A model generated the notes under the pieces. That model saw only the letters and a list, made by a program, of their open reading frames with translations, had not been told where the DNA came from and ran no database searches. Position numbers and translations under genes: made by a program. Below, in pieces: positions 6,116-53,859 of a DNA stretch of 64,000 nucleotides (position 1 is the stretch's first letter; the number at the start of each line of letters is the position of its first letter). The stretch covers positions 4,089 through 68,088 of the forward strand of contig JAGRGI010000021.1 of NCBI GenBank assembly GCA_020445565.1. Reading direction: 5' to 3'. The DNA comes from Chromatiales bacterium (GTDB lineage Bacteria; Pseudomonadota; Gammaproteobacteria; JAGRCI01).

Positions 6116-6158
6116 TTGATTTCCGAGCCGACCGTAGTGCTCCCTGTCGGGATACGTC

Positions 6159-13693: not shown

Positions 13694-14524
13694 ATGACGG
13701 ACGAAACCGTGCTTCACTACAGTCAGCTCACACTTCTTGTGATGGTGGCCGGTTTTTTCGCCGTTGCCCTGTGGGAATCCTTTCGCCCGTGTCGGCAACC
13801 GACGCAGCCTACGCCAAAGCGCTGGCTGCTCAACTTTTCGCTCTATGCCTTTGGCCTTTTGGGTTACCGCTGGTTGCTCCCCTTGAGTTACCTGGCTGCC
13901 GCCATTCTGGCCAGGCAACAAGGCTGGGGAGTGTTTCAACAGGTGCAGGTCCATCCCGTTGCGGCGTTTCTGATGACCCTGCTTGCCATCGACCTGTTGC
14001 GTTACGGGTTTCACCGGCTGCTGCACAACAATGCCTTGCTATGGCGCTTTCACGCCGTACACCATTCCGATCCCGATTACGATCTGACCCTGAGCCTGCG
14101 ATTCCATCCCATCGAATCGCTGCTGTTGTGGTACTGCACCCTGGGGTTGATTCTTCTGCTGGGTGCCCCCCCTCTGGCTGTTTTGATCATTGACGCGCTA
14201 TCGCTGCTCAACGGCCAGTTCACCCACGGCAACATTCGCCTTCCCCCAGCACTGGACACCGCGTTGCGTTGGCTGCTGGTGACGCCGAACATGCATCGGA
14301 TTCACCATTCCAAGATTCAGTCAGAGACTGACTCCAACTATGGCAGCCTGTTCAGCTTTTGGGATCGCTGGTTCGGGTCCTACACAAAAACGGCCCACTG
14401 CCCTCTGCAGGATCTTCCCATCGGACTGTCCCAGGTGCCGCCCGCGTCGGCTATGAATCTGGGCAAACTCATTGCCGATCCATTTCGCCGTCAGTCTTCA
14501 TCCGTGCAAACGAGGCAGTCATGA
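13694..14524 (+). CDS. Fatty-acid hydroxylase / sterol-desaturase-family membrane protein
   Basis: The histidine boxes are HRLLHNN, HAVHHSDPDYD and HRIHHS. It is a multi-TM protein. Confidence 0.8.
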   Translation: MTDETVLHYSQLTLLVMVAGFFAVALWESFRPCRQPTQPTPKRWLLNFSLYAFGLLGYRWLLPLSYLAAAILARQQGWGVFQQVQVHPVAAFLMTLLAIDLLRYGFHRLLHNNALLWRFHAVHHSDPDYDLTLSLRFHPIESLLLWYCTLGLILLLGAPPLAVLIIDALSLLNGQFTHGNIRLPPALDTALRWLLVTPNMHRIHHSKIQSETDSNYGSLFSFWDRWFGSYTKTAHCPLQDLPIGLSQVPPASAMNLGKLIADPFRRQSSSVQTRQS

Positions 14525-20296: not shown

Positions 20297-21040
20297 CTAG
20301 CCAGACAGCCGCATCGTCCGCGTTATCGCCTCTTCATTCTGGTCAGCGGTCTGCATGGTCTTTATCTGCATCTGGAAGGTTCTGGCCAGATTGATCAGTT
20401 CCACCAGCTCGTGTGCCGGGTTGACGTTGCTGCTCTCCAGGGCGCCGGAAATCACCTTGACGTTGGCATCGGCCTCGGCGGTCTCGCCGCTCTTGAGGCG
20501 CATCAGACCATCGCTGCCTTTTTCCAGCTGATCCAGCGGCGGACGTACCAGCTTGATGCGGTCCAGGGCAGCCACCTCGTTGGGCTGAGCGCCCAAGGGG
20601 ACGACGGAGATGGTGCCGTCACGGCCGATATCCATCTTCTGGGCAGGCGGGATGGCAATGGGGCCGTTGTTTCCCAACACGGGCAGGCCCGTTCCGGTCA
20701 CCAGTTGACCATTGACCGTGGTACGCAGATCGCCGGCCTTGGTATAGGCTTCGGTACCGTCGCGCGCCTGAACGGCGATCCAGCCTTCGTCCTCCACCGC
20801 CAGATCCAGCTCCCGACCGGTACTCTGCAGGGCTCCGGGGGTGAAATCCGAAGCCGGACGTTCCGCCAGGGCATAGGCCCGGCTGGGATAACCGGGACCG
20901 AACACCGGCATGCTGCGAAACTGCGTCAGATCGGCGCGGAACCCGGTGGTGGTGGCGTTCGCCAGATTGTTGCTGGTGGCCGTCTGGCGATGCAAGGCAT
21001 GGCTGGCGCCGGTCATCGCGATGTACAGCATACGGTCCAT
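20297..21040 (-). CDS. flgF: Flagellar basal-body rod protein FlgF
   Basis: MDRMLYIAMTGASHALHRQTATSNNLANATTTGFRAD... carries the rod-protein N- and C-terminal motifs, and the protein is 247 aa. Confidence 0.85.
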   Translation of the reverse strand: MDRMLYIAMTGASHALHRQTATSNNLANATTTGFRADLTQFRSMPVFGPGYPSRAYALAERPASDFTPGALQSTGRELDLAVEDEGWIAVQARDGTEAYTKAGDLRTTVNGQLVTGTGLPVLGNNGPIAIPPAQKMDIGRDGTISVVPLGAQPNEVAALDRIKLVRPPLDQLEKGSDGLMRLKSGETAEADANVKVISGALESSNVNPAHELVELINLARTFQMQIKTMQTADQNEEAITRTMRLSG

Positions 21041-21051
21041 GGCACTTACCC

Positions 21052-22350
21052 CTAGTTGATGTTGATGATCGTCTGGGTAACGTTGCTGGAGGTCTCGATG
21101 GTCTTGGCGTTGGCCTGGAAGTTGCGCTGGGCGGTGATCAGGCGAACCAGTTCACGGGTCAGATCCACGTTGCTGGCCTCCAGGGCGCCAGAGCGGACCA
21201 GGCCGAAGGTCCCGGTGCCGGCCTCACCGGTTACCGGTTCGCCCGAACCGATGGTCTGCGCCCAGGAGGTGTTGCCCAATTGGCGCAGACCCTGCGGATT
21301 GCGGAAATTGGTCAAAGCCACCTTGCCCAGGGCGACGAATTGCCCATTAGTGAAATTGGCCCGAATCAGTCCGTCCTCGGAGATGTCCAGGCCACTGAGC
21401 TGCCCGGTGGTGAAGCCGTCCTGACTCAACACGTTGACCGAAAACGGCCCGGCATATTGAGTGGGTACGTTATTGGCGAAATCCAGGGTCAGATCCAGAT
21501 CACTGGCACCATTGGTCAAGGCTACCGCTATACCCTCGATGGGTGCGGGCGAGGTGGATGCCAGATTGCCAGCCTCGTCGAAAACCAGCTCCGCATAGTT
21601 GACGCCCGCTGCCGGCGAGCCGGCTGTGCCGCCCGGAATATCCGTTGCCACCCCATCCACGTACAGATACACCGCCCAGGGGCTGGACGCCGGCGGGCCG
21701 GCCACCGGCGTCTGCTTGACGTAGTAGGTCGTGGCGATGTGGGCATCGCCGAGCGAGTCGAAGATGGTCACCGAAGTGGAGTTGGTGAAGGTTGACGGAT
21801 TGTCCGGATCGAACAGCGCCGGATCCAGTTCCGCGGCATTGGCCGGAAGGTTCAGGCCGATCTCGATCTCCGAGGTCGCCTGCGGCGTGCCGGCGGCCGC
21901 CGGAATCTGCACAGGGGTGGCCGTCCCCAGGCTGGTGGAGGTTACGGTGCCATCCTGATTTACCGGGAAGGACACCAAAAACTGGCCGGTGCTGTTGACG
22001 ATGAAACCATTCTCATTGACACCGAAGGCCCCTGCCCGGCTGTAGATCCTTTCCGTCGAAGTCAGGGTCGGCGCCAGAGTGAAGAAACCCGGCCCATTGA
22101 TGGCGAGATCAAGCGCGTTTTCCGTAAATTCCAGGTTACCCTGATTGAACTGCTGCGCCACATTGGACAGCAGCACGCCGCTGCCGATGGCCGTGGAGCC
22201 GTTGCCGAAGGGCGACAGGGCGTAGACATCGGCAAACTCCGCGCGCGACTCCTTGAAGCCGGTGGTGGCGGCATTGGAGATGTTGTTGGCGGTGACGCTG
22301 AGGTCGGAGGAAGCGGCATTGAGGCCGCTCAAACCAATATTGAAGGACAT
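21052..22350 (-). CDS. flgE: Flagellar hook protein FlgE
   Basis: 432 aa. MSFNIGLSGLNAASSDLSVTANNISNAATTGFK ... LEASNVDLTRELVRLITAQRNFQANAKTI. Confidence 0.9.
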   Translation of the reverse strand: MSFNIGLSGLNAASSDLSVTANNISNAATTGFKESRAEFADVYALSPFGNGSTAIGSGVLLSNVAQQFNQGNLEFTENALDLAINGPGFFTLAPTLTSTERIYSRAGAFGVNENGFIVNSTGQFLVSFPVNQDGTVTSTSLGTATPVQIPAAAGTPQATSEIEIGLNLPANAAELDPALFDPDNPSTFTNSTSVTIFDSLGDAHIATTYYVKQTPVAGPPASSPWAVYLYVDGVATDIPGGTAGSPAAGVNYAELVFDEAGNLASTSPAPIEGIAVALTNGASDLDLTLDFANNVPTQYAGPFSVNVLSQDGFTTGQLSGLDISEDGLIRANFTNGQFVALGKVALTNFRNPQGLRQLGNTSWAQTIGSGEPVTGEAGTGTFGLVRSGALEASNVDLTRELVRLITAQRNFQANAKTIETSSNVTQTIININ

Positions 22351-22389
22351 GACTACACTCCCGTATCGCCACTGGGGCCGTAAGGATCG

Positions 22390-23067
22390 TTACAACAATT
22401 CGCGAATCTCGGACAGGGGCATGGCCCCCAGCCCGGCAAGATTGACCTGGATGCCATCGCTTCCTCCCAGGGACACGCTCTCCACACGCGCAGCCATCAA
22501 GGTGAGGAAGGCCTGTTCCTTGCCGTTCACCTCGGCGCGCGCCGATACCGCATAGGCGCCATCGGCAGCGTAGTCCCCCTGGTCGGTCAGCCCATCCCAA
22601 CTGAAGTGCACACGGCCGGCGGTCTGGGGACCCAGATTCAGCACCCGCACCAATTGTCCGGCGCTGTCGTAGATATCCAGTTGCAGATTTCCCACCGAAG
22701 AACTGAGGTCGATGACACCGTCCATGCCCTCGCCGGCACTGAACGTGGAAGCGTTTCCGGGGACCAACGCCTGCCGACCGAGCAGACTGGCGGCCTGCAG
22801 GGCCTGACTGGAAGCGAAGGACTCGGCCATGCCCTGTACCGTGGTTTGCAGATCGGTGATGCCGTTGACCGTGGCGAACTGCGCCATCTGACCGAGAAAC
22901 TCACCACTCTCCATCGGCTTGAACGGGTCCTGGTTTTGTAGCTGGGTGGTCATCAGAGTGAGAAAATCCTCTTGGCCCAGCGTATCGTTGCGTTCCACGG
23001 TGGGTTGCCCGCGAAGGCCGATGGACTCCAGGTCGGGGAGCGTTTGCGCGGCTTGAATGGCGGCCAT
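22390..23067 (-). CDS. flgD: Flagellar hook capping/assembly protein FlgD
   Basis: The internal start MAAIQAAQ...LGQEDFLTLMTTQLQNQDPFKPMESGEFLGQMAQF carries the FlgD motif. It begins 8 bp after the flgC stop. Confidence 0.8.
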   Translation of the reverse strand: MAAIQAAQTLPDLESIGLRGQPTVERNDTLGQEDFLTLMTTQLQNQDPFKPMESGEFLGQMAQFATVNGITDLQTTVQGMAESFASSQALQAASLLGRQALVPGNASTFSAGEGMDGVIDLSSSVGNLQLDIYDSAGQLVRVLNLGPQTAGRVHFSWDGLTDQGDYAADGAYAVSARAEVNGKEQAFLTLMAARVESVSLGGSDGIQVNLAGLGAMPLSEIRELL

Positions 23068-23077
23068 GGCCGGTCTC

Positions 23078-23494
23078 CTATTCGCCCATGCGCAGGGTGC
23101 GCAGCAGCAGTTGTTTGGAGGTGTTGATGGCTTCCAGATTGGTCTGGAAGGACCGCGAGGCGGCAATCAGATTGGCCATCTCCTCCACCGGATTGACGTT
23201 CGGCAAGGTGATGTAGCCCTGGTCGTCCGCCATGGGATGATTGGGTGCGTACTCCCTGCGCAGCGGCGCATCGCTCTCGACGATGCCCAGCACCCCGACG
23301 CCGCTGGCGGCCTGATCGCTCTGGGTATAGCCATCCAGGGTGGCGCGAAATACCGGATGACGGGCACGGTAGGTACGGTCGATGCTGCTGCTGACGGTAT
23401 CCGCGTTGGCCATGTTGCTGGCGGTGGTGTTCAGCCGCAGCGATTGGGCACCGAGGGCACTGCCGGCAACGTCGAAGATACGAAACAAGGACAT
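23078..23494 (-). CDS. flgC: Flagellar basal-body rod protein FlgC
   Basis: 138 aa. MSLFRIFDVAGSALGAQSLRLNTTASNMANADT. Confidence 0.9.
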   Translation of the reverse strand: MSLFRIFDVAGSALGAQSLRLNTTASNMANADTVSSSIDRTYRARHPVFRATLDGYTQSDQAASGVGVLGIVESDAPLRREYAPNHPMADDQGYITLPNVNPVEEMANLIAASRSFQTNLEAINTSKQLLLRTLRMGE

Positions 23495-23507
23495 AACCGC
23501 TTACCTC

Positions 23508-23909
23508 CTACTCGCCCCGGATGGCGTTCTTCAAACCACGGAATTTGCCGCTGAGAAACTCCAGGCTGGCCTGGTACTCCACTGCGTTGCGGGTGAAGGC
23601 CATCTGCTCGGTGTGGGTGTCGACGGTATTGCCGTCCACCGAGGGCTGGTTGGGGATGCGATAGCCCAGGTCGCCTTCCATCTGGATCCGCACGTCGAAG
23701 TGGGACTGATGGGTGCGGGTAAGCGCGAAGTCCTGTCCTCCACGGCCTTCGGTGGCATGTTGCAGGGCCTTCTGGAAATCCAGATCCTGCGCCTTGTAGT
23801 TGGGCGTATCGGCGTTGGCGAGATTGGCCGAGAGAATCTCCGCGCGGCGCGCGCGCAGTCCCACGGTATGGGTGTGTATGCCTAGGGCCTTGTCGAAACT
23901 GATCGCCAT
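23508..23909 (-). CDS. flgB: Flagellar basal-body rod protein FlgB
   Basis: 133 aa. ...RAEILSANLANADTPNYKAQDLDF... Confidence 0.9.
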   Translation of the reverse strand: MAISFDKALGIHTHTVGLRARRAEILSANLANADTPNYKAQDLDFQKALQHATEGRGGQDFALTRTHQSHFDVRIQMEGDLGYRIPNQPSVDGNTVDTHTEQMAFTRNAVEYQASLEFLSGKFRGLKNAIRGE

Positions 23910-23943
23910 GGTCGGCTCCCGAAAGGTTTTTCATCAACCTCTA

Positions 23944-23959
23944 AGCAAAGCCGATGCCA
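23944..23959 (-). promoter_or_regulatory. Candidate sigma54 (-24/-12) promoter for flgB operon: TGGCAT-N5-TTGCT
   Basis: The minus strand reads tggcatcggctttgct, about 35 bp upstream of the flgB ATG. An AT-rich tract lies further upstream at 23981..24015. Confidence 0.4.
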
Positions 23960-24060
23960 CATCTGTATCAATATGTTTTTATTGTAAATTATTTGATGGC
24001 TGAGTTTAAAAAATGGAATGGGCGGCAAACCCCTGCCCCTGGTGCGGCAAATCGAGGGGA

Positions 24061-24870
24061 CTATTTCAGCCGATAGAAAATGGCGCCATTGCCCCGCTGC
24101 ATCTCGAAACGGTCGCTAACGCCGCTGAGTGACTCGGAGGCCCCCAGGAACAGATAGCCCTGCGGAGTGAGGACATCGGCCATGCGCTGCACGATGCGCG
24201 TCTTGACGTCGGCCGAGAAATAAATGAGCACATTGCGGCAGAAGATGATGTCGAACCGGCCCAGGGCCGCGAAGCTGTCCAGCAGGTTCATCTCACGAAA
24301 CCGCACGCGGGCCCGGATCTCCGGCCTTACCCGCCAGCAATCCTGCACCGGTTCGAAATAACGCCGGCGCTGCTCTTCCGTAATGCCCCGCTGTGCCGAT
24401 TGACCGCAATATTCCGCCTGGGTAGCGAAACGCAGCATGGTGGGGGCGATGTCGGTGGCAACGATTTCGGTCATGGCCGGTAGGCGCAAGGGCGCCCGCA
24501 AGTCCTGCATGGCCATCGACAAGGTGTAGGGCTCCTGCCCCGAGGAACAAGCCGCCGACCAGACGCGCAAACGTGTTGACTGCTTTGCCAACACTTCCGG
24601 CAATACTTGCTCGCGCAGGGCGATGAACTGAGCCGGGTCGCGAAACCAGGACGTCTCGTTGGTGGTCATGGCATCGATCACCAGGCCCTTCAAGCCGGGA
24701 CTGCGACCCGATTCCATCCGCTCCATCAATAACCCCAATCCGTCGATGCCGTGCTCCTTCATAATCGGAGCCAGGCGGCTGCGAACCAGGTACTGCCGCT
24801 GCTCGCCCAGGACGATACCGCTGGCGCGTTCGAGAAAATCGCGAAAGCGGTGGTAGTCCCTCTCCTCCAT
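24061..24870 (-). CDS. cheR: Chemotaxis protein methyltransferase CheR
   Basis: The start is taken at MEERDYHRFRDFLERASGIVLG. The MTase motif is RVWSAACSSGQEPYTLSM, followed by ...FCRNVLIYF. Confidence 0.85.
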   Translation of the reverse strand: MEERDYHRFRDFLERASGIVLGEQRQYLVRSRLAPIMKEHGIDGLGLLMERMESGRSPGLKGLVIDAMTTNETSWFRDPAQFIALREQVLPEVLAKQSTRLRVWSAACSSGQEPYTLSMAMQDLRAPLRLPAMTEIVATDIAPTMLRFATQAEYCGQSAQRGITEEQRRRYFEPVQDCWRVRPEIRARVRFREMNLLDSFAALGRFDIIFCRNVLIYFSADVKTRIVQRMADVLTPQGYLFLGASESLSGVSDRFEMQRGNGAIFYRLK

Positions 24871-24889
24871 CGCGTTGCCCCTGTCGTCG

Positions 24890-25834
24890 TTAAGCCGCCA
24901 CGTGGCCGACGCCATTGCGATGGTCCTCCAGGCGGCGCTCAAGACGTTCAGCCAAGTCATCCGGGTCGTATTTTGGGATGAATTCGTCGGCCCCCACCCG
25001 CTGCACCATGGCCTCATTGAAGCCGCCGCTGAGGGAGCTGTGCATCATCACATAGATCTCGCTCAGCACCGGTTCCTTACGCATCTCGGCGACCAGCGAA
25101 TAACCGTCCATTTGCGGCATTTCAATGTCCGTAATGACCACCGCCAGCCAATCCTTCAAAGTGCCGCGTTCCTCTCGCCACTCCTTCAGCAGCTTCAATG
25201 CGGCGCGGCCATCGTTGACCGTGGTATACGGCACCTGCATCTCATTCAACACACGTTCGATCTGTTTGCGGGCCACCAGGGAATCGTCGGCCACCAGAAC
25301 ATGTTGAGCGCTGCGATCTGCCTGATCATCGATCACCCCGGCGGAGACGGTCTCGTTGACGCCAACCACTTCCTTGAGCACTTTCTCCACATCGATGATC
25401 TCCACCAGTTCCTTGTCCACATCGGTAACTGCGGTGAGATAGCTGGATCGCCCGCTTCCCTGGGGAGGCGGCATGATGGATTCCCAGTGCATATTGATGA
25501 TGCGATCGACCGAACCCACCAGAAAACCCTGAATGTGGCGGTTGTATTCGGTAATGATGACGAAACGCGAGGCTATATCGGTCAGTGGCGGACCGCCGAT
25601 GGCCATGGACAGATCCATCACCGGTATCGTCTTGCCGCGCATATTGGCAATGCCGCGTACCACCCGATTGGCATGAGGCACCTGGGTGAGCACCGGGCAC
25701 TGGATGACCTCGCGAACCTTGAAAACGTTGATCCCGAAACGCTGCCGGCCGGCAAGTCGAAACAACAACAACTCCAGGCGATTGGCGCCGGCCAACCGCG
25801 TTCGCTGATCGACACCGTCCAGTATCCCCGCCAT
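24890..25834 (-). CDS. cheV: Chemotaxis coupling protein CheV (CheW-like domain + receiver)
   Basis: MAGILDGVDQRTRLAGANRLELLLF... is the CheW domain. The REC domain reads ...VLVADDSLVARKQI...VITDIEMPQMDG. Confidence 0.85.
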   Translation of the reverse strand: MAGILDGVDQRTRLAGANRLELLLFRLAGRQRFGINVFKVREVIQCPVLTQVPHANRVVRGIANMRGKTIPVMDLSMAIGGPPLTDIASRFVIITEYNRHIQGFLVGSVDRIINMHWESIMPPPQGSGRSSYLTAVTDVDKELVEIIDVEKVLKEVVGVNETVSAGVIDDQADRSAQHVLVADDSLVARKQIERVLNEMQVPYTTVNDGRAALKLLKEWREERGTLKDWLAVVITDIEMPQMDGYSLVAEMRKEPVLSEIYVMMHSSLSGGFNEAMVQRVGADEFIPKYDPDDLAERLERRLEDHRNGVGHVAA

Positions 25835-26081
25835 AGTGCGTTCTCCCAGGTTGCCCGAAACCATGGTGAAGGCGAAACGCCCTGACCTTCAGCTTGTTAG
25901 CGGTAGGCAGGCATCGATCCTTTAGTGCGGAAAAAATCTTTTCCGGGCGGCAAGGACTTACCGCCCCTGCCGCCTTGTCAGGCCGGTTTTCCATCGCGTC
26001 GCCCCGGCTGACCTGACTCTCCGAAATCTGGCAGGACTTCTGCATGGCGTCGACTGAAAACAGATCACGGGAGCCACCAGC

Positions 26082-26861
26082 ATGATTCAGCCACGCCAGA
26101 CCCCCGGCCGCCGCCGGAGTAGATCCAGGCCAAAGACCCGCCCGCTACGGTACTCTCCACGAGCGGTGATTTTCGGCGGCGTGCTGATCCTGGCCGCGCT
26201 GTGGATGCAGCACCAGGCCAGGGCCGCGGAGGCCCATCACGACCTGGAGGCGATTCGCCAAAGCGTGAGCGAATTCCTCAGCCACAAGTTGGGCGCCGAT
26301 CCCGCTGCCCGCATCGTCGTCAATCCCCTCGACCAACGCCTGCGCGTCGCGGCCTGTCCTCAACCCCTGAAACCCTGGCTGCCCTCCTCCAGCAAGCTGC
26401 TGGGACCTACCACCGTGGGCGTTCGCTGCCTGGGTGAGTCGCCCTGGACCTTGTACGTCTCGGCCCGCATCGAGCGTTACACCGACATCCAGATTGCCGC
26501 CAGGCCCCTGGCCAGAGGCGACATTGTCGGCGCCGGAGACCTGCGCACCGAAAGCCGGGATGTCAGCGGCCTGCGGGCAGGTTTCTTCGAGGAGGCTGCC
26601 GAACTCATCGGCAAGGTGGTGCGCCGCCCAATATCGGCGGGCAACCCGGTTCGTCCCACGCAGGTCGAGGACAGCTATCTGATCAAACGCGGCCAGAAGG
26701 TGGTGATTCTCGCCCGTGTCGGTGGCCTGTCCGTTCGGATGCGTGGCAAGGCCCTGGCCAACGGTGCCGCCGGAGACCACATTCGCATCGAAAACAGTCG
26801 CAGTGATCGTATCGTGGAGGGCGTCGTGAACGACGCCGGTATCGTTGAGGTATCGTTATGA
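26082..26861 (+). CDS. flgA: Flagellar basal-body P-ring formation chaperone FlgA
   Basis: The C-terminal SAF/FlgA region reads ...RRPISAGNPVRPTQVE...GDHIRIENSRSDRIVEGVV. The exact start is uncertain. Confidence 0.75.
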   Translation: MIQPRQTPGRRRSRSRPKTRPLRYSPRAVIFGGVLILAALWMQHQARAAEAHHDLEAIRQSVSEFLSHKLGADPAARIVVNPLDQRLRVAACPQPLKPWLPSSSKLLGPTTVGVRCLGESPWTLYVSARIERYTDIQIAARPLARGDIVGAGDLRTESRDVSGLRAGFFEEAAELIGKVVRRPISAGNPVRPTQVEDSYLIKRGQKVVILARVGGLSVRMRGKALANGAAGDHIRIENSRSDRIVEGVVNDAGIVEVSL

Positions 26862-26970
26862 AAACGCTTGTCAAGCCCCGGACTGGGAACGTCATCACGG
26901 AAAACCGGGTCGAAAGTGTGATTCAATTCCCGCCTGGGAACATCGGGTGTCCCACGCCCCGCAATGCCGT

Positions 26971-26997
26971 TAAAGCATCGGCGTTATTGGCCGATAG
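26971..26997 (+). promoter_or_regulatory. Candidate sigma28 (FliA) promoter for flgM: TAAAGcat-N11-GCCGATAG
   Basis: TAAAG lies at 26971..26975 and GCCGATAG at 26990..26997 with an 11-nt spacer, about 45 bp upstream of the flgM ATG. The consensus is TAAAGTTT-N11-GCCGATAA. Confidence 0.55.
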
Positions 26998-27038
26998 AGG
27001 GGTAACGGCGGAGGAAGCACTCCACGGGAGAATACAGA

Positions 27039-27350
27039 ATGGCAATAGAAATCAATGGTCTGCCGAGCAGCTCCGTGCATCAGGCAGGCGACAGCGGCAA
27101 GGGCGGCGAGCCCTTGGAAGTACCGGCGCCACGAACGCAGAGTACATCGGCAGGCAGTTCCGACACGGTCAGCCTTACCCAGCGGGCCAGCCAACTCGAT
27201 CAGTTGGAGCGTTCCGTATCCAGCCAGCCCGTGGTCGACACCCAACGGGTGGAGGCGATTCGCAAGGCGATTTCCGATGGCTCTTTCGAGGTGGACCCGG
27301 CACGCACGGCGGACAAACTGATCCAGTTCGAATCTTCACTGGACCGCTGA
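27039..27350 (+). CDS. flgM: Anti-sigma-28 factor FlgM
   Basis: 103 aa. The conserved C-terminus is ...VDTQRVEAIRKAISDGSFEVDPARTADKLI. Confidence 0.85.
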   Translation: MAIEINGLPSSSVHQAGDSGKGGEPLEVPAPRTQSTSAGSSDTVSLTQRASQLDQLERSVSSQPVVDTQRVEAIRKAISDGSFEVDPARTADKLIQFESSLDR

Positions 27351-27393
27351 ACCCGGCCCCTTTTCCGCCCGGTTCCACCGGGGGGAGGCGGCC

Positions 27394-27882
27394 ATGAGCA
27401 CTTCCAGCGAGAGTAAACAGCTCGCCTACTGGATCGACCAGGAAACCAAGGCCGCCGAGCGTCTGCTGGAAACCCTGGAACAGGAACGATCGGCCCTGAC
27501 CGAACGCGCCAGCGAAAAACTGTCCGAGATCGCCAACCGCAAATTGGCCTGTGCCCGGCAGTGCGAGCAAATCGCCGCGCGGCGCGATCACTTTCTCGAT
27601 GTATTGCAATTGCCTAAGGGCAGAGTCGGCATCGAGCGCCTGCTGGAGCGTCTGCAAGCGGCGGGAGACACCGGTCTGCAACTCCCCTGGCGGGAACTGC
27701 TCGCCATCGCCGCCCGCTGCCGACATCTGAATCAAATCAACGGCGGTATCGTCGAGTTGTCGCGCCGGCATATACATCGCGCCCTGGACCTTCTGCGCGG
27801 CCAGGAACGCGATGCCGAACTCTACGGCCCAGCCGGGATGAACACCGGCAGCCGCATCGGCCACACCCTGGCGGTCGCTTGA
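27394..27882 (+). CDS. flgN: Flagellar export chaperone FlgN
   Basis: 162 aa and helical, in the flgM-flgN context (…LLETLEQERSALTE…). Confidence 0.75.
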   Translation: MSTSSESKQLAYWIDQETKAAERLLETLEQERSALTERASEKLSEIANRKLACARQCEQIAARRDHFLDVLQLPKGRVGIERLLERLQAAGDTGLQLPWRELLAIAARCRHLNQINGGIVELSRRHIHRALDLLRGQERDAELYGPAGMNTGSRIGHTLAVA

Positions 27883-27963
27883 GCAGCCGTGCTCACCGGC
27901 CTCCGGGCATTTTCGGGGGAATTCGCCTGTCCGGCCCAACAGCCAGGCAGGGCGGACTAAAGC

Positions 27964-28710
27964 ATGTTACAGACAATCAAAAAAATATTCGGCCAACAGG
28001 GCACCGATCATCAGAATCCGTCACAAATCACTGACAAGGGCCGCATCGTCAGCCTGCTGGAGCGGGTACGTGAGTCGCGCCTGAATTTGCAGGTGAACCT
28101 GCCGGGCGACAACGAACGCTATGCCAGCGCACTGCTGCGTGTCGATCCCGGAAAGGGCCTGATTTGCCTGGACGAACTCAACCCCGTCAAGGGGCATGAG
28201 CGCGCCAGGTTTGCCGAGGGCATCACCGTGCATACCCTGCTTGAGGGGGTGGATCTGACCTTCTCCACCCAGGTGCTGGAGGTTGGCCACCGCGATGGCA
28301 TCGCCTACTACCGCGCCAGCCTGCCCCACTTGCTGCACTATAATCAACGCCGCAGCTTCTATCGCCTCAAGCTCGACCGGCGCCATCCGGTGATCCTGGG
28401 TATTCACTACAACAAGCGACGTGAAACCATTCGAGGACGCCTGTCGGATATTTCACTGGGTGGCTTGGCCGCACGAATTGAAAAAGACCTGGAACTGCAA
28501 GCCGGGGAATCGCTCGGCTCATGCAGCCTGCACCTACCCGGCGCCGACGTCATCAATTGTTCCCTGGATGTGCGTCACGTACAAGCCGAAACCAGAGGCG
28601 GCCTGCGCATCGGGGCAGAGTTCTCGGCGATCAACAGCGAGGCGCAAGACCTGATCTTTCGCTTCGTGCGCAGCCTGGAGCGTGACCAGCTACGGCGTCA
28701 CCTCATGTAG
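27964..28710 (+). CDS. ycgR: YcgR-like flagellar brake protein (PilZN + PilZ, c-di-GMP binding)
   Basis: The RxxxR motif is YNQRRSFYRL and the D/NxSxGG motif is RLSDISLGG, 248 aa in all, in a flagellar context. Confidence 0.75.
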   Translation: MLQTIKKIFGQQGTDHQNPSQITDKGRIVSLLERVRESRLNLQVNLPGDNERYASALLRVDPGKGLICLDELNPVKGHERARFAEGITVHTLLEGVDLTFSTQVLEVGHRDGIAYYRASLPHLLHYNQRRSFYRLKLDRRHPVILGIHYNKRRETIRGRLSDISLGGLAARIEKDLELQAGESLGSCSLHLPGADVINCSLDVRHVQAETRGGLRIGAEFSAINSEAQDLIFRFVRSLERDQLRRHLM

Positions 28711-29310
28711 AAGCCTCCAGCGCGAGAGATCCTCCGGCCTGTCCAGGTCCCAGAGGGGGTGAAGTTCGCGCCAGTGCCAACCGGCCTGGCGCAGTCGTTC
28801 GCGGGTCTTGGCGAGCACCTGGGCGCTGCCCCAGGGGATGTCCATAAACGGCTGCGGCCCCCATTTTCTCAACCCGACGAGCACATAGCCACCGTCTTCT
28901 GCCGGCCCGAGCACGCAGTCAGCCCCGGCGTCCAAAGCCGCCAGTGCCTGTTTCACATAGTCCGCATCCATCGGCGGGCAGTCGCTCCCCACCAGGATCA
29001 CCTTGTCCTGCCGCTCCAGGCCGGTGCGCAGGGCCAGACTCATACGCTCGCCCAAATCGGCACCTTCCTGCGATTGAATCAGAAGACTGTGCTCTGCGGC
29101 GAGGGTTTGGAATACCGGGTGATTCGGCTCGCCACTCACCCAAAGGCTGAGTGCGCCGCCAAAGGCCCCGGCCAGTCTGTCGACCGTGGTGCGCAACAGT
29201 TCTTCGTAGACCCTGGCAGCCCCCTGCGCCCCCAGAGCGGATATCAAGCGGGTTTTTGCCTGGCCTGCGATGGGCGGTCTGGCAAAAACCTGGACAGCGA
29301 AATCGCTCAT
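28690..29310 (-). CDS. DUF2064 / TIGR04282-type glycosyltransferase-like (nucleotidyltransferase-fold) protein
   Basis: The start is set at MSDFAVQVFARPPIAGQAKTRL, giving ~206 aa with the conserved FAKAP..G.KTRL N-terminus. It overlaps the upstream GT2 gene by 4 bp. Confidence 0.7.
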   Translation of the reverse strand: MSDFAVQVFARPPIAGQAKTRLISALGAQGAARVYEELLRTTVDRLAGAFGGALSLWVSGEPNHPVFQTLAAEHSLLIQSQEGADLGERMSLALRTGLERQDKVILVGSDCPPMDADYVKQALAALDAGADCVLGPAEDGGYVLVGLRKWGPQPFMDIPWGSAQVLAKTRERLRQAGWHWRELHPLWDLDRPEDLSRWRLLHEVTP

Positions 29311-29990
29311 CGGTAGGACTTGGCCAGGTTTTCGGGGGCCACGCCGAGGAAATAGCCCAGTCGCAAACGCCACATCAACACTACCGTTCGCAGTATGCCG
29401 GCCTGTTCCCAGCGACGACTGGAAGCAAGCAGCGGCTGGTGCAGGCACCAGGGGCGGGCCTTGCGTCGCAAGCACTTGCTGAGGGCCACATCTTCCATGA
29501 GGGGGATATCCGGGAAACCGCCAACCGCTTCGAACCATTCGCGGCAGACAAAGATTCCCTGGTCTCCGGTGGCGACACCCGTCCAGCAGGAACGCCGGTT
29601 CATGAACCACTCGATGACACGAAAGGCCCATCGATCGCCCGAAAGACGCACATCGAAGCGCCCCCAGGTCCCCCGTTGGGCGATGTCAGCCAATGCCGTC
29701 AATGCCCGGGCCGATACCCGCGTATCGGCATGAACGAACCAGAGGAGTTCTCCCTTGGCGACGGAAGCACCCATATTCATCTGAGTCGCACGGCCCGCTT
29801 TGCAAGACAGCAACACCTCGCAATGGGGCCTGGCCCTGGCCATGGTATCGTCCATACTGCCACCGTCCACCACGATCCGTTCGGCTTCCAGGGGTGCCAA
29901 GTCTTTCAGAACGGCCTCTATGTTGGCAGACTCGTCGCGGGCCGGGACAACCACCGAGATGCTTGTCACGCGTTTAGCGCTCCGCCGCAA
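29307..29990 (-). CDS. Family-2 glycosyltransferase (TIGR04283-like)
   Basis: ISVVVPARDESANI...DGGSMDDT... is a GT-A fold with a DxD-like signature, 227 aa. Confidence 0.75.
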   Translation of the reverse strand: MRRSAKRVTSISVVVPARDESANIEAVLKDLAPLEAERIVVDGGSMDDTMARARPHCEVLLSCKAGRATQMNMGASVAKGELLWFVHADTRVSARALTALADIAQRGTWGRFDVRLSGDRWAFRVIEWFMNRRSCWTGVATGDQGIFVCREWFEAVGGFPDIPLMEDVALSKCLRRKARPWCLHQPLLASSRRWEQAGILRTVVLMWRLRLGYFLGVAPENLAKSYR

Positions 29991-30925
29991 CTACTGCCCT
30001 GCCCCGCTGTACAGCCGTAGCAGTGATCCGCCACCCGAATGCCACGGCCTTCCAGGCCGTGCGGGTCCAATTGGTCGAGATGCAGCCCGCCGGCGGGCGC
30101 GCCGGCCAGGGGAAGCTTCAACATCTGATTGAAATCGCAGTCATAGACCTTTCCCTGCCAGTCCACGCTGATCAACTCACGGCACATGACCGCGGCAAGG
30201 TTTTCATCCCGATGAGATGCCTTGAGGAGTTTCATGTAGTCATGAAACTCCCCCTTGGACAGCAGAGTACTGCCGAAGCGCTGAATCGGCATATTGGCCA
30301 GGGTGAGCAACCGGGTGAATACCACGCCGTACGCCTCGCCGAGATGTTTGCGATAGTCCGCCTCCAAGGCACATTGAGCCGGCGGCAGATAGGCTCCCAG
30401 CGGGTTGTAGACCAGATTCAATGGCAAGCCTTCTGCGCCGTAGCCCAGGGCATTGAGTCGCCTGAGGCCCGAGATACTTCGCTCGAACACGCCGTCACCG
30501 CGCTGGCCGTTGACGTTCTCCTCCAGGTAGCACGGCAGCGAGGCCACCACTTCGACCTGGTTGCCGGCCAGAAACTCTGCCAGATCCTCTTGTCCGGGTT
30601 CGCTTAGAATGGTGAGATTGCAGCGATCCATCACCTGGACGCCGCGGATGCGGGCCTGGCTGACCAACCAGCGAAAATGCGGGTTCAATTCCGGCGCGCC
30701 GCCGGTAAGATCCAATACCTGCACCGTAGAGCGATCCAGAAAGGCCAGTACGCTTTCGATGGTCTTGCGACTCATCTGCTCCTTGCGCTTCGGTCCGGCG
30801 TTGACGTGGCAATGCAGGCAGGACTGGTTGCAGCGATAGCCCAGATTCACCTGCAAGGCGGTGAGGGGCCGGCGCCGCAGGGCGGGGAAATCGCTGTCGA
30901 GCAGCAGGGGCAAAGTCGGTTTCAT
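29966..30925 (-). CDS. Radical SAM / Cys-rich domain protein (TIGR04167, ArsS-like)
   Basis: The CxxxCxxC radical SAM motif is CNQSCLHC, and the Cys-rich C-terminus reads ...DHCYGCTAGQGSSCGGAL. Length is 319 aa. Confidence 0.8.
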   Translation of the reverse strand: MKPTLPLLLDSDFPALRRRPLTALQVNLGYRCNQSCLHCHVNAGPKRKEQMSRKTIESVLAFLDRSTVQVLDLTGGAPELNPHFRWLVSQARIRGVQVMDRCNLTILSEPGQEDLAEFLAGNQVEVVASLPCYLEENVNGQRGDGVFERSISGLRRLNALGYGAEGLPLNLVYNPLGAYLPPAQCALEADYRKHLGEAYGVVFTRLLTLANMPIQRFGSTLLSKGEFHDYMKLLKASHRDENLAAVMCRELISVDWQGKVYDCDFNQMLKLPLAGAPAGGLHLDQLDPHGLEGRGIRVADHCYGCTAGQGSSCGGALNA

Positions 30926-30994
30926 GGCAAAACTGCTTTCCGGTTTCGTGACAACTGCGGATTTTGGCCAAATCCTGCGAGGAGCCTGTCCTTA

Positions 30995-31936
30995 ATGACT
31001 ATGCCCGCCGTCAGCGCATTGCGCAATCGCCTGATCAAAAACGCCCGCCACTGGGGTAAGTGGGCGCGACGCCAGGGCATCGGTAGTTATCGCCTCTATG
31101 ATCGGGACATTCCGGAATTTCCCCTGGCCGTGGATCGCTACGAGGGGCGCGTCCATGTCCAGGAGTTTGCCCGCCGCGGCACCGAGGGTAAAGACACGGA
31201 TTGGTGGGCAGCGGTCTTGCCCGTGGTCGCCGAGGTGCTGGAGGTTCCGCCCGAGGCCATCGCCACCAAACAGCGCCGCCGCCAGAAAGGTAGCGATCAA
31301 TACAATAAGACCGGCGAAACCGGGAAAGATTTTGTCGTCCACGAGGACGGTCTGGCATTTTGGGTAAATATGGACACCTATCTGGACACCGGACTGTTCC
31401 TGGATCACCGGCCGACCCGTCACCGCATCCGCCAGGAAGCGGCAGGCAAACGGTTTCTCAATCTGTTCGCCTACACCGGTAGTTTCAGCGTCTATGCCGC
31501 CGCCGGTGGCGCCAGCCATTCCCTGACCGTGGACCTGTCCAATACCTATCAAGACTGGACGCGACGCAATTTCGCCTTGAACGAGGTCGACCTGCGTCAA
31601 CACCACCTGCTGCGGACGGACGTTTTGAGGCTACTGGACGACCCCGGCGGTGACCTGGGTCGCTTCGACCTGATCGTCATGGACCCGCCGTCGTTCTCCA
31701 ACTCCAAGGCGATGGCCGCCGTTTTGGATGTGCAACGCGATCATCCGCGGCTGATCGCCGGCGCCCTGGATTTGCTCGCACCCGGCGGCACGCTGTATTT
31801 CTCCAACAATCGGCAGGGGTTTCAACTGGACGAGAACGCCCTGCCGGACTGCCAATGGAAAGAAATCACCACGCAGACCCTGGCCGAGGATTTTCGCCGC
31901 AAGGGTGGGCATCGCTGCTGGTTGATTCAGCGATAG
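30995..31936 (+). CDS. Class I SAM-dependent N-methyltransferase, RlmK/RlmI-like rRNA methyltransferase type (DPPSF motif)
   Basis: The start is taken at MTMPAVSALRNRLIKNARH, inside the track ORF 30677..31936. Motif I is NLFAYTGSFSVYAA and motif IV is MDPPSF. Confidence 0.7.
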   Translation: MTMPAVSALRNRLIKNARHWGKWARRQGIGSYRLYDRDIPEFPLAVDRYEGRVHVQEFARRGTEGKDTDWWAAVLPVVAEVLEVPPEAIATKQRRRQKGSDQYNKTGETGKDFVVHEDGLAFWVNMDTYLDTGLFLDHRPTRHRIRQEAAGKRFLNLFAYTGSFSVYAAAGGASHSLTVDLSNTYQDWTRRNFALNEVDLRQHHLLRTDVLRLLDDPGGDLGRFDLIVMDPPSFSNSKAMAAVLDVQRDHPRLIAGALDLLAPGGTLYFSNNRQGFQLDENALPDCQWKEITTQTLAEDFRRKGGHRCWLIQR

Positions 31937-34199: not shown

Positions 34200-35054
34200 T
34201 CAGAGCTTTCGGCGACTGGCGAGGGCGAGGATGCCAAACGTGGCCAGCAGCAAGGCAAGGCCGATCCGTGTCCATTCTCCAAGGGTGGGAACCGGAACCG
34301 GGGTGACGACGACCGCTGGCGCATCATTGTCAACGGCCAGACCGTTGATATCCACCGGATCAACGCCGTTGTAGGCGAGATCCGCGGAAACCGCGGCACC
34401 GGTGGTGACGGAGAAGGCCAGATCGCCATCGATCAGGGCATCGTCGATCGCCGTGATGGTCACGGTCGCCGAGTACCCATTGCCCGCAGTCAGGGTGACG
34501 GAGTTGGTGGACAGCGTGATCTCCGCGGCCGTGTTATTGGTCAGGTTAATGACGATGTCAGAAGCGGGGGCACCGGTCGCAGCGATGGTCACGACCTGGT
34601 TGGCACCCTCCGTGACAAAGAGACCGCTGCTCGGATTGACCGTGATCGTGTCGACGCCCTCTATGTTGACATTGGTTGCATTCACATCGGCGGCGACCTC
34701 CATGGCATAGTTGCCGGCGGGCTGATTGGAACTGACCGCATTGGTGATGGTGTACATGACGTCACCATCGTTTCCGTCGCCCGAGGCGCCGGGGGTGACG
34801 GTGATGAACTGCGGTGTCGTGTAATCGGCCAGTGTAAACATGACCGCAGCGCTGACGGTGCCTTCGGTAACGTCACCGCTGGACGGCGTGACGGTGACGG
34901 TTTCACCGGCGCTCGGCGGGCTGTCGAGGCTGACCCGGTATGTGACTGCGCTGCCGTCTTCGGTGGTCGTCAGGGTAGTGGGTGTTATGACGACAGCGGC
35001 TTCGGCGTTGCTTGCAACGAACAACGCGGCGAGGGATAGGTAAAGTCTCTTCAC
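34200..35054 (-). CDS. Secreted Thr/Val-rich repetitive surface protein with IPTL-CTERM sorting signal
   Basis: The signal peptide is MKRLYLSLAALFVASNAEA. The C-terminus PVPVPTLGEWTRIGLALLLATFGILALASRRKL has the IPTL-like motif, a TM helix and a basic tail. Confidence 0.75.
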   Translation of the reverse strand: MKRLYLSLAALFVASNAEAAVVITPTTLTTTEDGSAVTYRVSLDSPPSAGETVTVTPSSGDVTEGTVSAAVMFTLADYTTPQFITVTPGASGDGNDGDVMYTITNAVSSNQPAGNYAMEVAADVNATNVNIEGVDTITVNPSSGLFVTEGANQVVTIAATGAPASDIVINLTNNTAAEITLSTNSVTLTAGNGYSATVTITAIDDALIDGDLAFSVTTGAAVSADLAYNGVDPVDINGLAVDNDAPAVVVTPVPVPTLGEWTRIGLALLLATFGILALASRRKL

Positions 35055-41691: not shown

Positions 41692-42201
41692 TCAGGAACC
41701 GGCGGCGTTGTCCCAGACCCCGTCCTCCGGTTCCAAGCCGTTTTCCCGTGTCCACACCAATTGGCCGATGATCTTGAAACGCGCCACGGAAAGGGCACCA
41801 CGCTTGCGCCGGGAGGCACTGGCCTGACGGTGATATTCCTCGGCCTCACGGCGTTCGAGGCGGTAGATCTCGTAGGGCTCGTATTCCTCGTCCATCAGCA
41901 CCAGCAGTACGGCCTCCCAATCCTTATCCATGCGCAACTGACCGATGCGCTGACCACTCTTCGATTCGTCAAAGATGGTACGCCCCTTTACCAACAGTCG
42001 CTGGCCGTCCCACTGGTCGCGGCCCACGGCGTCGTATCCGATGCTGCGATCGTCCATCAACTCCAGATTCAACAGCCGCGAAGCATCGTATTCGGCGATT
42101 TCCGCGCTGACGCCGGGCAATGGCTTACCCATCCCTCGGCGATAATCGGCGGCGAGTCGGCGTGCTTGTGCAATCAGTTTGTCCGGCGAATAAACGCTCA
42201 T
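41692..42201 (-). CDS. Conserved hypothetical protein (169 aa) translationally coupled to the helicase
   Basis: Its stop codon abuts the helicase start with no gap, and I recognise no domain in it. Confidence 0.5.
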   Translation of the reverse strand: MSVYSPDKLIAQARRLAADYRRGMGKPLPGVSAEIAEYDASRLLNLELMDDRSIGYDAVGRDQWDGQRLLVKGRTIFDESKSGQRIGQLRMDKDWEAVLLVLMDEEYEPYEIYRLERREAEEYHRQASASRRKRGALSVARFKIIGQLVWTRENGLEPEDGVWDNAAGS

Positions 42202-42417: not shown

Positions 42418-43572
42418 GTGTCGAATCCACTGAACCTCACCCTCGTCCTCGCCTGCTCGCTACCCATCGCCGGCCTTGCGAACGCTCCCGTTGATCTACC
42501 GGCAGATAAGTCGGCCCTAGGCCGGGCGCTGTATTTCGACACCAATCTATCCTTGAACCGCACCCAATCCTGCGCCACCTGCCATGCCCCCGAGGCCGCC
42601 TTTACCGACCCCAGGGACAATGGCGTCGGCGGCGCGGTCTCCCTTGGCGATGACGGCAAATCCCTGGGCGACCGCAATGCACCTACGGCCGCCTACGCCA
42701 GGTTCAGCCCGAAATTTCATCGCAATGCCAAGGGCAACTACGTCGGCGGTCAGTTTCTCGACGGACGCGAAGCGGATCTCCAGGGCCAGGCGGGCGGTCC
42801 GCCCCTCAATCCCCTGGAAATGGGTATGCCCAGCGAAGCGGCGGTAGTGGCGCGCCTGCAAGAAAACCCGGTTTACGCCGGCGTCTTGAAGCAACTCTAC
42901 GGAGCGGACATTTTCGACGACGCCCACCAAGCCTACCTGGCCATGACCGACAGCATCGCCAGTTTCGAACAGAGCGAGGCATTCGCCCCCTTCGATTCCA
43001 AGTACGACCGCTACCTGCGCGGGGAATACCAGATGACGGAAAAAGAGGAGTTGGGGCGAACCTTGTTCTTCTCTCAGCAATTCACCAACTGCAACATCTG
43101 CCACCAGCTAAAACCGCTGGCGGGGGCCGAAGGCGAGACCTTCAGCAACTACGAATTTCACAATATCGGTGTGCCGACGAACCGGGATGTACGTGCCAGG
43201 AATGGCCTGCCCGAAGGCACGCAGGATGCCGGCCTGCTGGCCCACCCACAGGTGGAGGACCCATCTCAGAACGGAAAATACAAGGTGCCGACCCTGCGAA
43301 ACGTGGCCGTGACCGGCCCCTATATGCACAACGGCGTGTTCAAGGACCTGCGCACCGTGATCCTCTTCTACAACAAATACAACAGTCGCAGCGCCAAGCG
43401 CCAGATCAACCCGGAAACCGGTCAGACATGGGCCGAACCGGAGGTGCCCGAAAATCTGGCGATCAAGGAACTGGAGACCGGCCCGGCTCTGGACAACCGG
43501 CGTATCGATGCGCTGATCGCCTTCCTGGAGACTTTGACCGACAGACGCTACGAGCCGCTGCTGAAGCCCTGA
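42418..43572 (+). CDS. ccp: Di-haem cytochrome c peroxidase
   Basis: There are two CxxCH motifs (CATCHAP and CNICHQ) and a signal peptide. It uses a GTG start. Confidence 0.9.
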   Translation: MSNPLNLTLVLACSLPIAGLANAPVDLPADKSALGRALYFDTNLSLNRTQSCATCHAPEAAFTDPRDNGVGGAVSLGDDGKSLGDRNAPTAAYARFSPKFHRNAKGNYVGGQFLDGREADLQGQAGGPPLNPLEMGMPSEAAVVARLQENPVYAGVLKQLYGADIFDDAHQAYLAMTDSIASFEQSEAFAPFDSKYDRYLRGEYQMTEKEELGRTLFFSQQFTNCNICHQLKPLAGAEGETFSNYEFHNIGVPTNRDVRARNGLPEGTQDAGLLAHPQVEDPSQNGKYKVPTLRNVAVTGPYMHNGVFKDLRTVILFYNKYNSRSAKRQINPETGQTWAEPEVPENLAIKELETGPALDNRRIDALIAFLETLTDRRYEPLLKP

Positions 43573-48100: not shown

Positions 48101-48995
48101 GTTGGAAATCGCCGAGGCCGACGGCGACCTGGACCGTCGCGCAGAGGCCAACCGCGCCCTGGGCAATACCGTATTCTGGACAGGCGATCTGCAAACCGCG
48201 CGCAAGGCAATGGAGAACGCCGTCGCCCTCGCGGCCCAATCCACCAGCGCCGACCGCACGGACGAATACGGGCAAAACCCCGACGTCGCCAATCACGGCA
48301 TGCTGGCCTGGACGGTCTGTTTAAGCGGCTACCCCAAAGACGCAATTCGCCACGCCGGCCTATCCCTGCAACTCGCCCAGACCTCCGGCCACCCCTTCAG
48401 CCTTGCCTTCGCCTGTGGCGTGCACATGTGGATGTACCGGCTTCTGGATGACGGCATCCAAACCCTGGGCTGGGCCGACCGCACCCTGGAACTCACCGAA
48501 GCCAACGGTTTCCCCTACTTCAGTACCGCCGCCCGCGTCCTGCGCGGTTGGGGCCGGGCCAGAAACGGCGAAGGTAAAGCCGGCCTGGAGGAAGCCCTAT
48601 CCGCCGTCACCGCCTGGCAGGAGATGGGCCAGGAAATCGGTGTGCCGGTATTCCTCTACGCCACCGCAGATGCCGCCCAGCTGGCCGGCGACTCCCAACA
48701 AGCGCTGACACTGCTCCGCCACCCCACCCTCACCGCCCGAACCCACAAAGAACGTTGGTACCTGGCCGATTTGCGGCGAATTGAGGGAGAGTGTCATTGG
48801 CAGTCGGGCGGACGAGAATCAGCCTTGCTGGCTTGGAGAGAGGCTTTGCAGGTAGCGCGGGAGCAGAGCGCGCGCTTGATCGCTTATCGTGTCGCGCATA
48901 TGGCTCGGAATTATGGCCTAAGAGATGATGAAATTGGATTGAGAAAAGCGGATTTGGAGATTCCTCAGCCAATAACAAATCCGCATTTCGACTGA
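45186..48995 (+). CDS. Multidomain signalling protein: two adenylate/guanylate cyclase (CHD) domains + STAND/AAA ATPase + TPR repeats
   Basis: CHD1 reads [16 protein letters not shown] and CHD2 reads [10 protein letters not shown]...[15 protein letters not shown]. Walker A is [16 protein letters not shown], followed by long TPR-like helical repeats, 1269 aa in all. Confidence 0.85.
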
Positions 48996-53844: not shown

Positions 53845-53859
53845 AAGTGCTCTAGCTGA

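Follow-up and report, generated by a model that had tools for sequence, protein, structure and literature searches.

A minimal-core arsenosugar-type operon and a predicted stand-alone rlmK gene, adjacent and probably unrelated, in an uncultured Chromatiales-type gammaproteobacterium

Introduction

The radical S-adenosylmethionine (SAM) enzyme ArsS of Synechocystis (SsArsS) works together with the methyltransferase SsArsM (PMC8552651), as a preliminary description of the DNA analysed here had rightly pointed out for cyanobacteria. According to a more recent account (PMC13598754; bioRxiv 10.64898/2026.04.29.721666, citing Cheng et al. 2021), ArsS attaches a 5'-deoxyadenosyl radical, by means of its [4Fe-4S]/SAM site, to the trivalent dimethylarsenical DMAs(III), giving DDMAA (5'-deoxy-5'-dimethylarsinoyl-adenosine), after which adenine is removed and the ribose is derivatised. 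The searchable literature yielded no enzymes experimentally assigned to these post-ArsS steps of arsenosugar synthesis. A second described system is ribosomal: a stand-alone RlmK, NMB1367 of Neisseria meningitidis, restores 7-methylguanosine at position 2069 of 23S rRNA (m7G2069) in an E. coli ΔrlmKL strain, and an RlmKL D568A construct was among the complementation tests (PMC3351187). Both systems bear on a locus (positions 28690–31936) in a 64-kb stretch of contig JAGRGI010000021.1 from a Chromatiales bacterium (the whole stretch is referred to below as the window), where a triad of overlapping minus-strand genes, encoding an ArsS homologue, a family 2 glycosyltransferase (GT2) and a DUF2064 protein, lies divergently next to a methyltransferase gene.

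The preliminary description had raised the possibility that all four genes serve one pathway modifying a nucleoside or a metalloid. Our analysis makes it probable instead that they form two unrelated units, a minimal-core "arsenosugar-type" operon arsS/TIGR04283/TIGR04282, whose late steps we infer, and a divergent housekeeping rlmK gene. The triad itself is one routine instance of a known and widespread cluster annotated by the NCBI Prokaryotic Genome Annotation Pipeline (PGAP), not a new pathway. As far as experiments go, it is fair to say, as the earlier statement did, that nothing is known of its product outside Cyanobacteria; on the other hand, NCBI already applies the name "arsenosugar biosynthesis" to each of the three families.

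Results

Organization of the locus

Open reading frame (ORF) listing, translation and profile searches confirmed all four genes within 28690–31936. The minus-strand operon runs from arsS (29966–30925; 319 amino acids (aa), the Cys form of a radical SAM/Cys-rich DUF3641 protein) through the gene of a TIGR04283-family GT2 enzyme of GT-A type (29307–29969; 220 aa) to that of a TIGR04282/DUF2064 protein (28690–29310; 206 aa). Families were called with NCBIfam profiles at their curated cut-offs and domains with Pfam; all three products score over the cut-offs of TIGR04167, TIGR04283 and TIGR04282, in agreement with the preliminary description, and these strong matches are not due to chance. Each of the two junctions is a 4-nt overlap (29966–29969 for arsS/GT2 and 29307–29310 for GT2/DUF2064), which points to a single, translationally coupled operon.

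The products have the same lengths (319, 220 and 206 aa) as called on six metagenome contigs that encode an identical ArsS. A mechanically delimited ORF, 28690–29631, is too long for the DUF2064 gene, whose true start is at 29310, and the GT2 gene starts at 29969. Two antisense ORFs (28759–29316 and 30023–30607), favoured by a crude gene picker based on third-position GC content, were set aside as shadow ORFs in view of the decisive family matches on the minus strand.

ArsS

The ArsS protein matched TIGR04167 with 448.3 bits (cut-off 300) over model positions 2–303 of 303, which substantiates its earlier designation as an ArsS-like radical SAM protein and places it in a characterised arsenosugar enzyme family. 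Pfam recognised Radical_SAM and DUF3641 domains (E 1.4e-53 for the latter). The radical SAM motif CX3CX2C (C32/C36/C39, CNQSCLHC) and the C-terminal cysteines C248, C263, C302, C305 and C313 do not vary across an alignment of 20 sequences. The protein ends in ...CYGCTAGQGSSCGG, and the GSSC context of C313 fits the GxxU motif of the selenoprotein form of the family.

For comparison, we assembled 80 genome loci with an ArsS homologue and flanks of up to 10 kb, 48 of which are fully flanked (at least 8 kb on either side of ArsS). The window ArsS is 60–71% identical to the homologues of these genomes (Alpha-, Beta-, Gamma- and Zetaproteobacteria), and its close homologues carry the name ArsS in the database. 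The family as a whole comprises 705 clusters at 50% identity (E≤1e-30; more than 8000 sequences scored). The clusters of 10 diverse family representatives included no cyanobacterial names; as a cyanobacterial reference standing in for the Synechocystis enzyme we used the ArsS that adjoins arsM on a Pseudanabaena plasmid (48% identity). In an unbootstrapped neighbour-joining tree, the window ArsS fell among ArsM-linked sequences (adjacent or fused) and sequences from compact triads, i.e. those with all three genes directly adjacent; this mixed placement gives no sign of a separate subfamily. A search for a solved ArsS structure found none, returning just weak matches to YydG in the radical SAM core. 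Judging from the characterised enzyme family, the window ArsS is predicted to adenosylate DMAs(III).

The two transferases

The GT2 protein matched TIGR04283 with 246.7 bits (cut-off 182) as well as Pfam Glycos_transf_2, and it retains every residue that is at least 95% conserved in the family (D35-G-G-S-x-D40, H80-x-D82, T134-G-D-Q137 and M158-E-D160). The DUF2064 protein matched TIGR04282 with 196.2 bits (cut-off 134) and PF09837 with E 6e-30, and showed weaker profile matches to CofC (TIGR03552), NTP_transf_3 and MobA-like nucleoside triphosphate (NTP) transferases. GenBank lists an identical protein under the title [quoted passage not shown].

In sequence the DUF2064 protein matched the structural-genomics entry 3cgx, itself a DUF2064 protein (E 1e-23), which is also the nearest fold to its AlphaFold model (predicted local distance difference test score, pLDDT, 94.4). 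Next in the fold list are the FbiD/CofC guanylyltransferases 6bwg/6bwh, 7p97 and 2i5e, with template-modelling (TM) scores of 0.69–0.74, followed by KdsB, IspD and GlmU, with glycosyltransferases far lower (TM ~0.5). Despite its NCBI name, the TIGR04282 protein thus appears, as modelled, to resemble CofC/FbiD nucleotidyltransferases more than glycosyltransferases.

Conservation of the triad

The claim that the triad forms a conserved neighbourhood holds well beyond the window: in 38 of the 48 fully flanked loci, ArsS is followed downstream by the GT2 and DUF2064 genes. They are directly adjacent to it, as in the window, in 11 of these 48; the bacteria with this compact form belong to different orders. 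In many relatives, additional conserved genes (1–9 kb) separate ArsS from GT2.

In the window the triad borders a flagellar cluster. Beyond its DUF2064 end lie flgF-E-D-C-B, cheR and cheV, then flgA, flgM and flgN, and the block ends with a plus-strand gene (27964–28710) for a YcgR/FlgZ-like protein with Pfam domains PilZN and PilZ, convergent to the DUF2064 gene and sharing 21 nt with it at the 3' ends. The PilZ gene is a syntenic neighbour of the triad only. The window counterpart of this synteny spans 20297–30925 (flgFEDCB-cheR-cheV, flgA-M-N-PilZ and the triad). The order flagellar cluster / PilZ / DUF2064←GT2←ArsS recurs in the loci L018, L035, L057 and L068 and in a close relative, L098; in L079 and L081 the flagellar cluster adjoins the triad and no PilZ gene is adjacent. 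Leaving aside L098, the six syntenic gammaproteobacterial genomes are distantly related (ArsS 60–66% and FlgC 56–65% identical), and the presence of the triad at the same flagellar border in all of them suggests that it has long been inherited vertically and is not a mobile island.

The divergent methyltransferase

The plus-strand gene at 30995–31936, 69 bp from the ArsS start, encodes a class I methyltransferase of 313 aa that had been described as a SAM-dependent, RNA-type methyltransferase with a DPPSF motif, transcribed divergently from the intergenic region next to the triad; this description proved accurate, and the data bear out the accompanying suspicion that the gene might be a housekeeping rlmK or rlmI. 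The protein matched the RlmKL model NF008748 with 390.8 bits (positions 397–701, E 1e-116) versus 105 bits for RlmI, and residues 395–699 of E. coli RlmKL (PDB 3v8v) with E 3.4e-79 versus 3.4e-27 for 3c0k (YccW), which we take to be RlmI. Motif IV aligns as VMDPPSFSNSK in the window protein on FIDPPTFSNSK in RlmKL, its Asp being equivalent to E. coli D568. The RlmK-type homologues number at least 7999, have ~310–360 aa among the matches listed, and include Chromatiales and Neisseriales. We predict the window protein to be a stand-alone RlmK-type 23S rRNA (m7G2069) methyltransferase, a housekeeping enzyme unlinked to the triad.

The gene context points in the same direction. The methyltransferase was absent within 10 kb of ArsS in the genome loci (0/80), and its nearest homologues (60–64% identical) have no triad beside them and occur in three different contexts, all unrelated. 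None of the six syntenic genomes with the triad at the flagellar border (L018, L035, L057, L068, L079 and L081) has it there; in three of the six, a gene for an extracytoplasmic function (ECF) sigma factor adjoins the ArsS start. Outside the window, methyltransferase and ArsS are neighbours only on the identical metagenome contigs and in L098 (ArsS 85%, methyltransferase 84% and PilZ 72% identical to the window), which is no more than the usual synteny of a narrow lineage. The position of rlmK next to arsS would be a lineage-specific accident of gene order. In view of the RlmK match, the lack of linkage and the unrelated contexts of its homologues, we rejected the methyltransferase as a pathway partner of the triad: a partnership is unsupported because the gene is, by prediction, a housekeeping stand-alone rlmK.

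No match to a sigma-70-like promoter was found in the 69-bp arsS–rlmK spacer (30926–30994), and no Rfam family in the whole window, spacer included. The spacer contains a near-palindrome, GGATTTTGGCCAAATCC (30959–30975), with arms GGATTT and AAATCC around a 5-nt gap. An inverted repeat of 6 bp is too short for significance, and since the related contigs are identical in the spacer, conservation is uninformative about it.

Genes associated with ArsS in other genomes

The methyltransferase that belongs with ArsS is of the ArsM type, as indicated by both fusion and clustering. An arsenite-methyltransferase-like domain is fused to ArsS, in either order, in 6 of 10 long representatives (P0247, P0269, P0273, P0292, P0340 and P0356), and an ArsM-like methyltransferase gene is found in 14 of the 80 loci. 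The Pseudanabaena plasmid pPg_02 has the order TVP38 / mercuric reductase / arsM (arsenosugar type) / TVP38 / arsS. The other four long ArsS representatives (P0252, P0256, P0297 and P0307) carry N-terminal extensions of 220–430 aa with no Pfam match.

Another recurrent neighbour is a homologue of methylthioadenosine (MTA) phosphorylase, located immediately upstream of ArsS in 6/80 loci. On a Burkholderia thailandensis plasmid, MTA phosphorylase adjoins TIGR04283/TIGR04282. An Acinetobacter portensis plasmid has the order arsS / TVP38-oxidoreductase / DUF547 / TIGR04283 / TIGR04282 / methyltransferase / phosphate transporter / mtnP / sterol desaturase, and on a Thiodictyon plasmid, where the triad families are also present, a sterol desaturase gene adjoins arsS.

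Across the same 80 loci, the most frequent associate was a fusion of TVP38(VTT) with a flavin adenine dinucleotide (FAD)-dependent pyridine-nucleotide-disulfide oxidoreductase (35 loci); the cluster c10 in related loci was rejected as an alternative-frame shadow of this gene. Further associates were a metallophosphoesterase-like protein (20), a TIGR03169 oxidoreductase (16), DUF547 (12), an ECF sigma factor (12), DUF3047 (11), a multi-pass transporter (6) and a fatty acid hydroxylase (6; L015, L025, L045, L058, L074 and L078), the last mostly directly upstream of ArsS. The metallophosphoesterase-like protein (~310 aa; L008–L077, e.g. L040 10955–11983 and L017 10959–11903), encoded between ArsS and the TVP38-reductase, has the motifs GDFHWFD, GNVE, HGD, SHTC and NNGAAGMPNF and matched neither Pfam nor NCBIfam; on the Burkholderia plasmid PGAP labels it hypothetical. 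The TIGR03169 ("N-terminal to SelD") oxidoreductase gene lies downstream of DUF2064, as in L085 (15715–16857) and 15 other loci. Genes of the MbnB/TglH/ChrH family lie a few kb from ArsS in L011, L032, L041, L065, L076 and L086. The window itself has a fatty acid hydroxylase/sterol desaturase gene (13694–14524, plus strand), 15 kb from the triad and 37% identical to the ArsS-linked hydroxylase cluster.

Discussion

Proposed pathway and alternative explanations

Combining the described ArsS reaction with the gene neighbourhoods, we propose the following sequence for the operon. A trivalent dimethylarsenical, supplied by an ArsM-type methyltransferase whose gene would lie elsewhere in the genome, would receive a 5'-deoxyadenosyl radical from ArsS. 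That MTA phosphorylase clusters with the transferases suggests that DDMAA then undergoes phosphorolysis, in which an enzyme of this type (for the window pathway presumably a housekeeping one, encoded outside the window) would take off adenine and leave a 5-substituted α-ribose-1-phosphate. The CofC/FbiD-like fold of TIGR04282, together with its CofC- and MobA-like profile matches, leads us to propose this protein as the nucleotidyltransferase that may convert the ribose-1-phosphate intermediate to a ribose activated by a nucleoside diphosphate (NDP). The GT2 enzyme could then transfer the ribosyl unit to an acceptor (glycerol, glycerol phosphate or a lipid), yielding a β-riboside. MTA phosphorylase yields α-ribose-1-phosphates, GT2 enzymes invert, and natural arsenosugars are β-ribofuranosides, so that the stereochemistry would fit the proposal.

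Several observations weigh against this reading. The evidence for the NDP-activation step consists of fold similarity and gene clustering, and a CofC-like fold would fit the activation of another phospho-compound equally well; the searchable literature yielded no experiment on either TIGR04282 or TIGR04283. Searches of the window with tblastn and profile hidden Markov models (HMMs; E≤1), in which the ArsS HMM as a positive control scored 7.5e-171, found no arsM, MTA phosphorylase or TVP38-reductase, nor did they find TIGR03169, DUF547, DUF3047 or the metallophosphoesterase-like gene. No ars resistance gene and no selenium gene was found in the window either, and with such partners missing the arsenic substrate is suggested by the family rather than by the locus. 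Among the compact-triad loci with full flanks, none (0/11) had an ArsM-like gene within 8–10 kb. Finally, the adjacency of rlmK and arsS does recur in L098, and a gene order conserved at 85% ArsS identity is silent on function. As for the missing arsM, this gene commonly sits in separate ars operons, and its absence from 64 kb says little.

A joint pathway for a nucleoside or metalloid, in which methyltransferase, radical SAM protein, GT2 and DUF2064 would be co-regulated from the 69-bp region, could draw on the divergent layout with its short spacer, on the recurrence of the arrangement in the identical metagenome contigs and one relative (85% ArsS, 84% methyltransferase), and on the known cooperation of ArsS with a methyltransferase. 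That partner, however, is by fusion and clustering of the ArsM type, a different methyltransferase family, and the window protein matches RlmK over its whole length with an aligned DPPxF motif, a stand-alone enzyme of this kind having been established experimentally as the 23S rRNA m7G2069 methyltransferase. Since, in addition, the 80 loci show no linkage within 10 kb, the 60–64% identical homologues lie in contexts without the triad and the six syntenic genomes keep the triad without the methyltransferase, we regard the joint pathway as extremely improbable. A milder departure from our proposal would make both TIGR04282 and TIGR04283 true glycosyltransferases that act sequentially on arsenoribose, with no nucleotidyl activation. 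The NCBIfam product names are in line with it, as are the deposition of 3cgx as a "putative nucleotide-diphospho-sugar transferase" and the occurrence of GT-A enzymes such as mannosylglycerate synthase lower in the fold list. Yet the guanylyl- and cytidylyltransferases (FbiD/CofC, KdsB and IspD) reach TM 0.69–0.74 versus ~0.5 for glycosyltransferases, and the sequence profiles likewise match CofC and MobA-like NTP transferases, which renders this version unlikely, if worth keeping in mind.

A compact triad without clustered arsM might also act on a non-arsenic substrate (selenium, antimony, a sulfur compound or a lipid) and yield an adenosyl- or ribosyl-conjugate unrelated to arsenosugars. Besides the lack of arsM and ars genes in the window and of ArsM-like genes near compact triads, the ArsS identity of 60–71% across classes and the fixed place by flagellar genes hint at a routine role, as opposed to an occasional one; the selenoprotein forms of ArsS and the clustering of the selenium-associated TIGR03169 (16/80 loci) hint at a selenium connection, and the fatty acid hydroxylase, DUF547 and TVP38 membrane neighbours at lipids. 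The window ArsS nevertheless forms no separate clade, nesting with ArsM-adjacent and ArsM-fused relatives in the unbootstrapped tree, and scores far over the equivalog cut-off; as arsM is often located in separate ars operons, its absence from 64 kb is of little weight, and we consider a non-arsenic role unlikely. We would give slightly less credence still to the more specific idea that the vertically inherited compact operon on the flagellar side, with no linked arsM, makes an adenosyl- or ribosyl-derived product that contains no arsenic, or not arsenic alone, such as a seleno-, thio- or lipid-linked riboside, formed by radical adenosylation, phosphorolysis, CofC-like NDP activation and GT2 transfer. 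If true, such a route would be a previously unrecognised reaction sequence, routine across many Pseudomonadota. Finally, given the further conserved genes (1–9 kb) that separate ArsS and GT2 in many relatives, the window triad might be what remains, in inactive form, of a larger cluster after the loss of TVP38-reductase, ArsM, DUF547 and others. With three intact ORFs, family-conserved residues and coupling overlaps preserved, and the same compact form in 11/48 fully flanked loci of different orders, a remnant is highly improbable.

Under the preferred arsenosugar-type reading, the MTA phosphorylase clustering, the CofC/FbiD-like fold of TIGR04282 and the conserved GT2 motifs supply a concrete, testable reaction order for the late steps. 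A capacity for making arsenosugar-type compounds is also suggested for many Pseudomonadota that are not photosynthetic, which is relevant to arsenic cycling.

Other features of the window

Beyond the methyltransferase gene, the window encodes a chemoreceptor, an ATP-binding cassette (ABC) transporter, tsaB, yoaA and cysS. A Tn3-family element occupies 1647–8109, with a TetR regulator (1647–2273, minus strand), a Tn3 transposase (2370–5336, minus) and a resolvase (6159–6731, plus); next to these is an unusual fusion of a MerR helix-turn-helix with a class I SAM methyltransferase (6928–8109, minus; 393 aa; no NCBIfam match at E≤1e-20). The region 45186–62866 holds very large genes, for an adenylate/guanylate cyclase with AAA_16 (1269 aa), a TSP3-repeat protein (1306 aa) and an fn3 / Big_13 / CarboxypepD_reg protein (2978 aa), as well as a transglutaminase-like protein (275 aa). 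A MauG/MbnH-like di-heme enzyme (42418–43572, plus) scored 156 bits, under the family cut-off of 363. Four coding-like ORFs had no Pfam or NCBIfam match: 34200–35054 (minus), 41692–42201 (minus), 74–1372 (plus) and 26858–27397 (plus), the last probably an over-extended flgM, which is called at 103 aa on related contigs.

Comparison with known systems

With ArsS of Synechocystis sp. PCC 6803, which makes an oxo-arsenosugar together with ArsM, the window ArsS shares the equivalog family, the CX3CX2C motif and the Cys-rich DUF3641 domain. It differs in having no arsM adjacent or elsewhere in the 64 kb and in belonging to an uncultured Chromatiales-type gammaproteobacterium, where its function is predicted from sequence. 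The families, order, strand and overlaps of the triad are those of a neighbourhood known from NCBI/TIGRFAMs as "rSAM/selenodomain-associated transferase 1 and 2", the members of which now bear the name arsenosugar biosynthesis proteins, and the neighbourhood also occurs on Burkholderia, Acinetobacter and Thiodictyon plasmids. The window version is a compact form lacking the TVP38/FAD fusion, DUF547, DUF3047, TIGR03169, ArsM-like, MTA phosphorylase and metallophosphoesterase-like genes that are common in Betaproteobacteria.

The closest folds of known function to the DUF2064 protein are CofC/FbiD, the 2-phospho-L-lactate or phosphoenolpyruvate guanylyltransferases of coenzyme F420 synthesis, and 3-phosphoglycerate guanylyltransferase (all at the TM values given above); in contrast to these, it belongs to its own family, TIGR04282, is just 18–21% identical to them and has no F420 context. 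The methyltransferase, like Neisseria RlmK NMB1367, stands alone at ~313 aa, with DPPSF in place of the DPPTF of RlmKL (YcbY). Its predicted rRNA target would be served in this member of the Gammaproteobacteria (Chromatiales) by a stand-alone RlmK, as opposed to the fused form reported for Gammaproteobacteria in a 2012 study.

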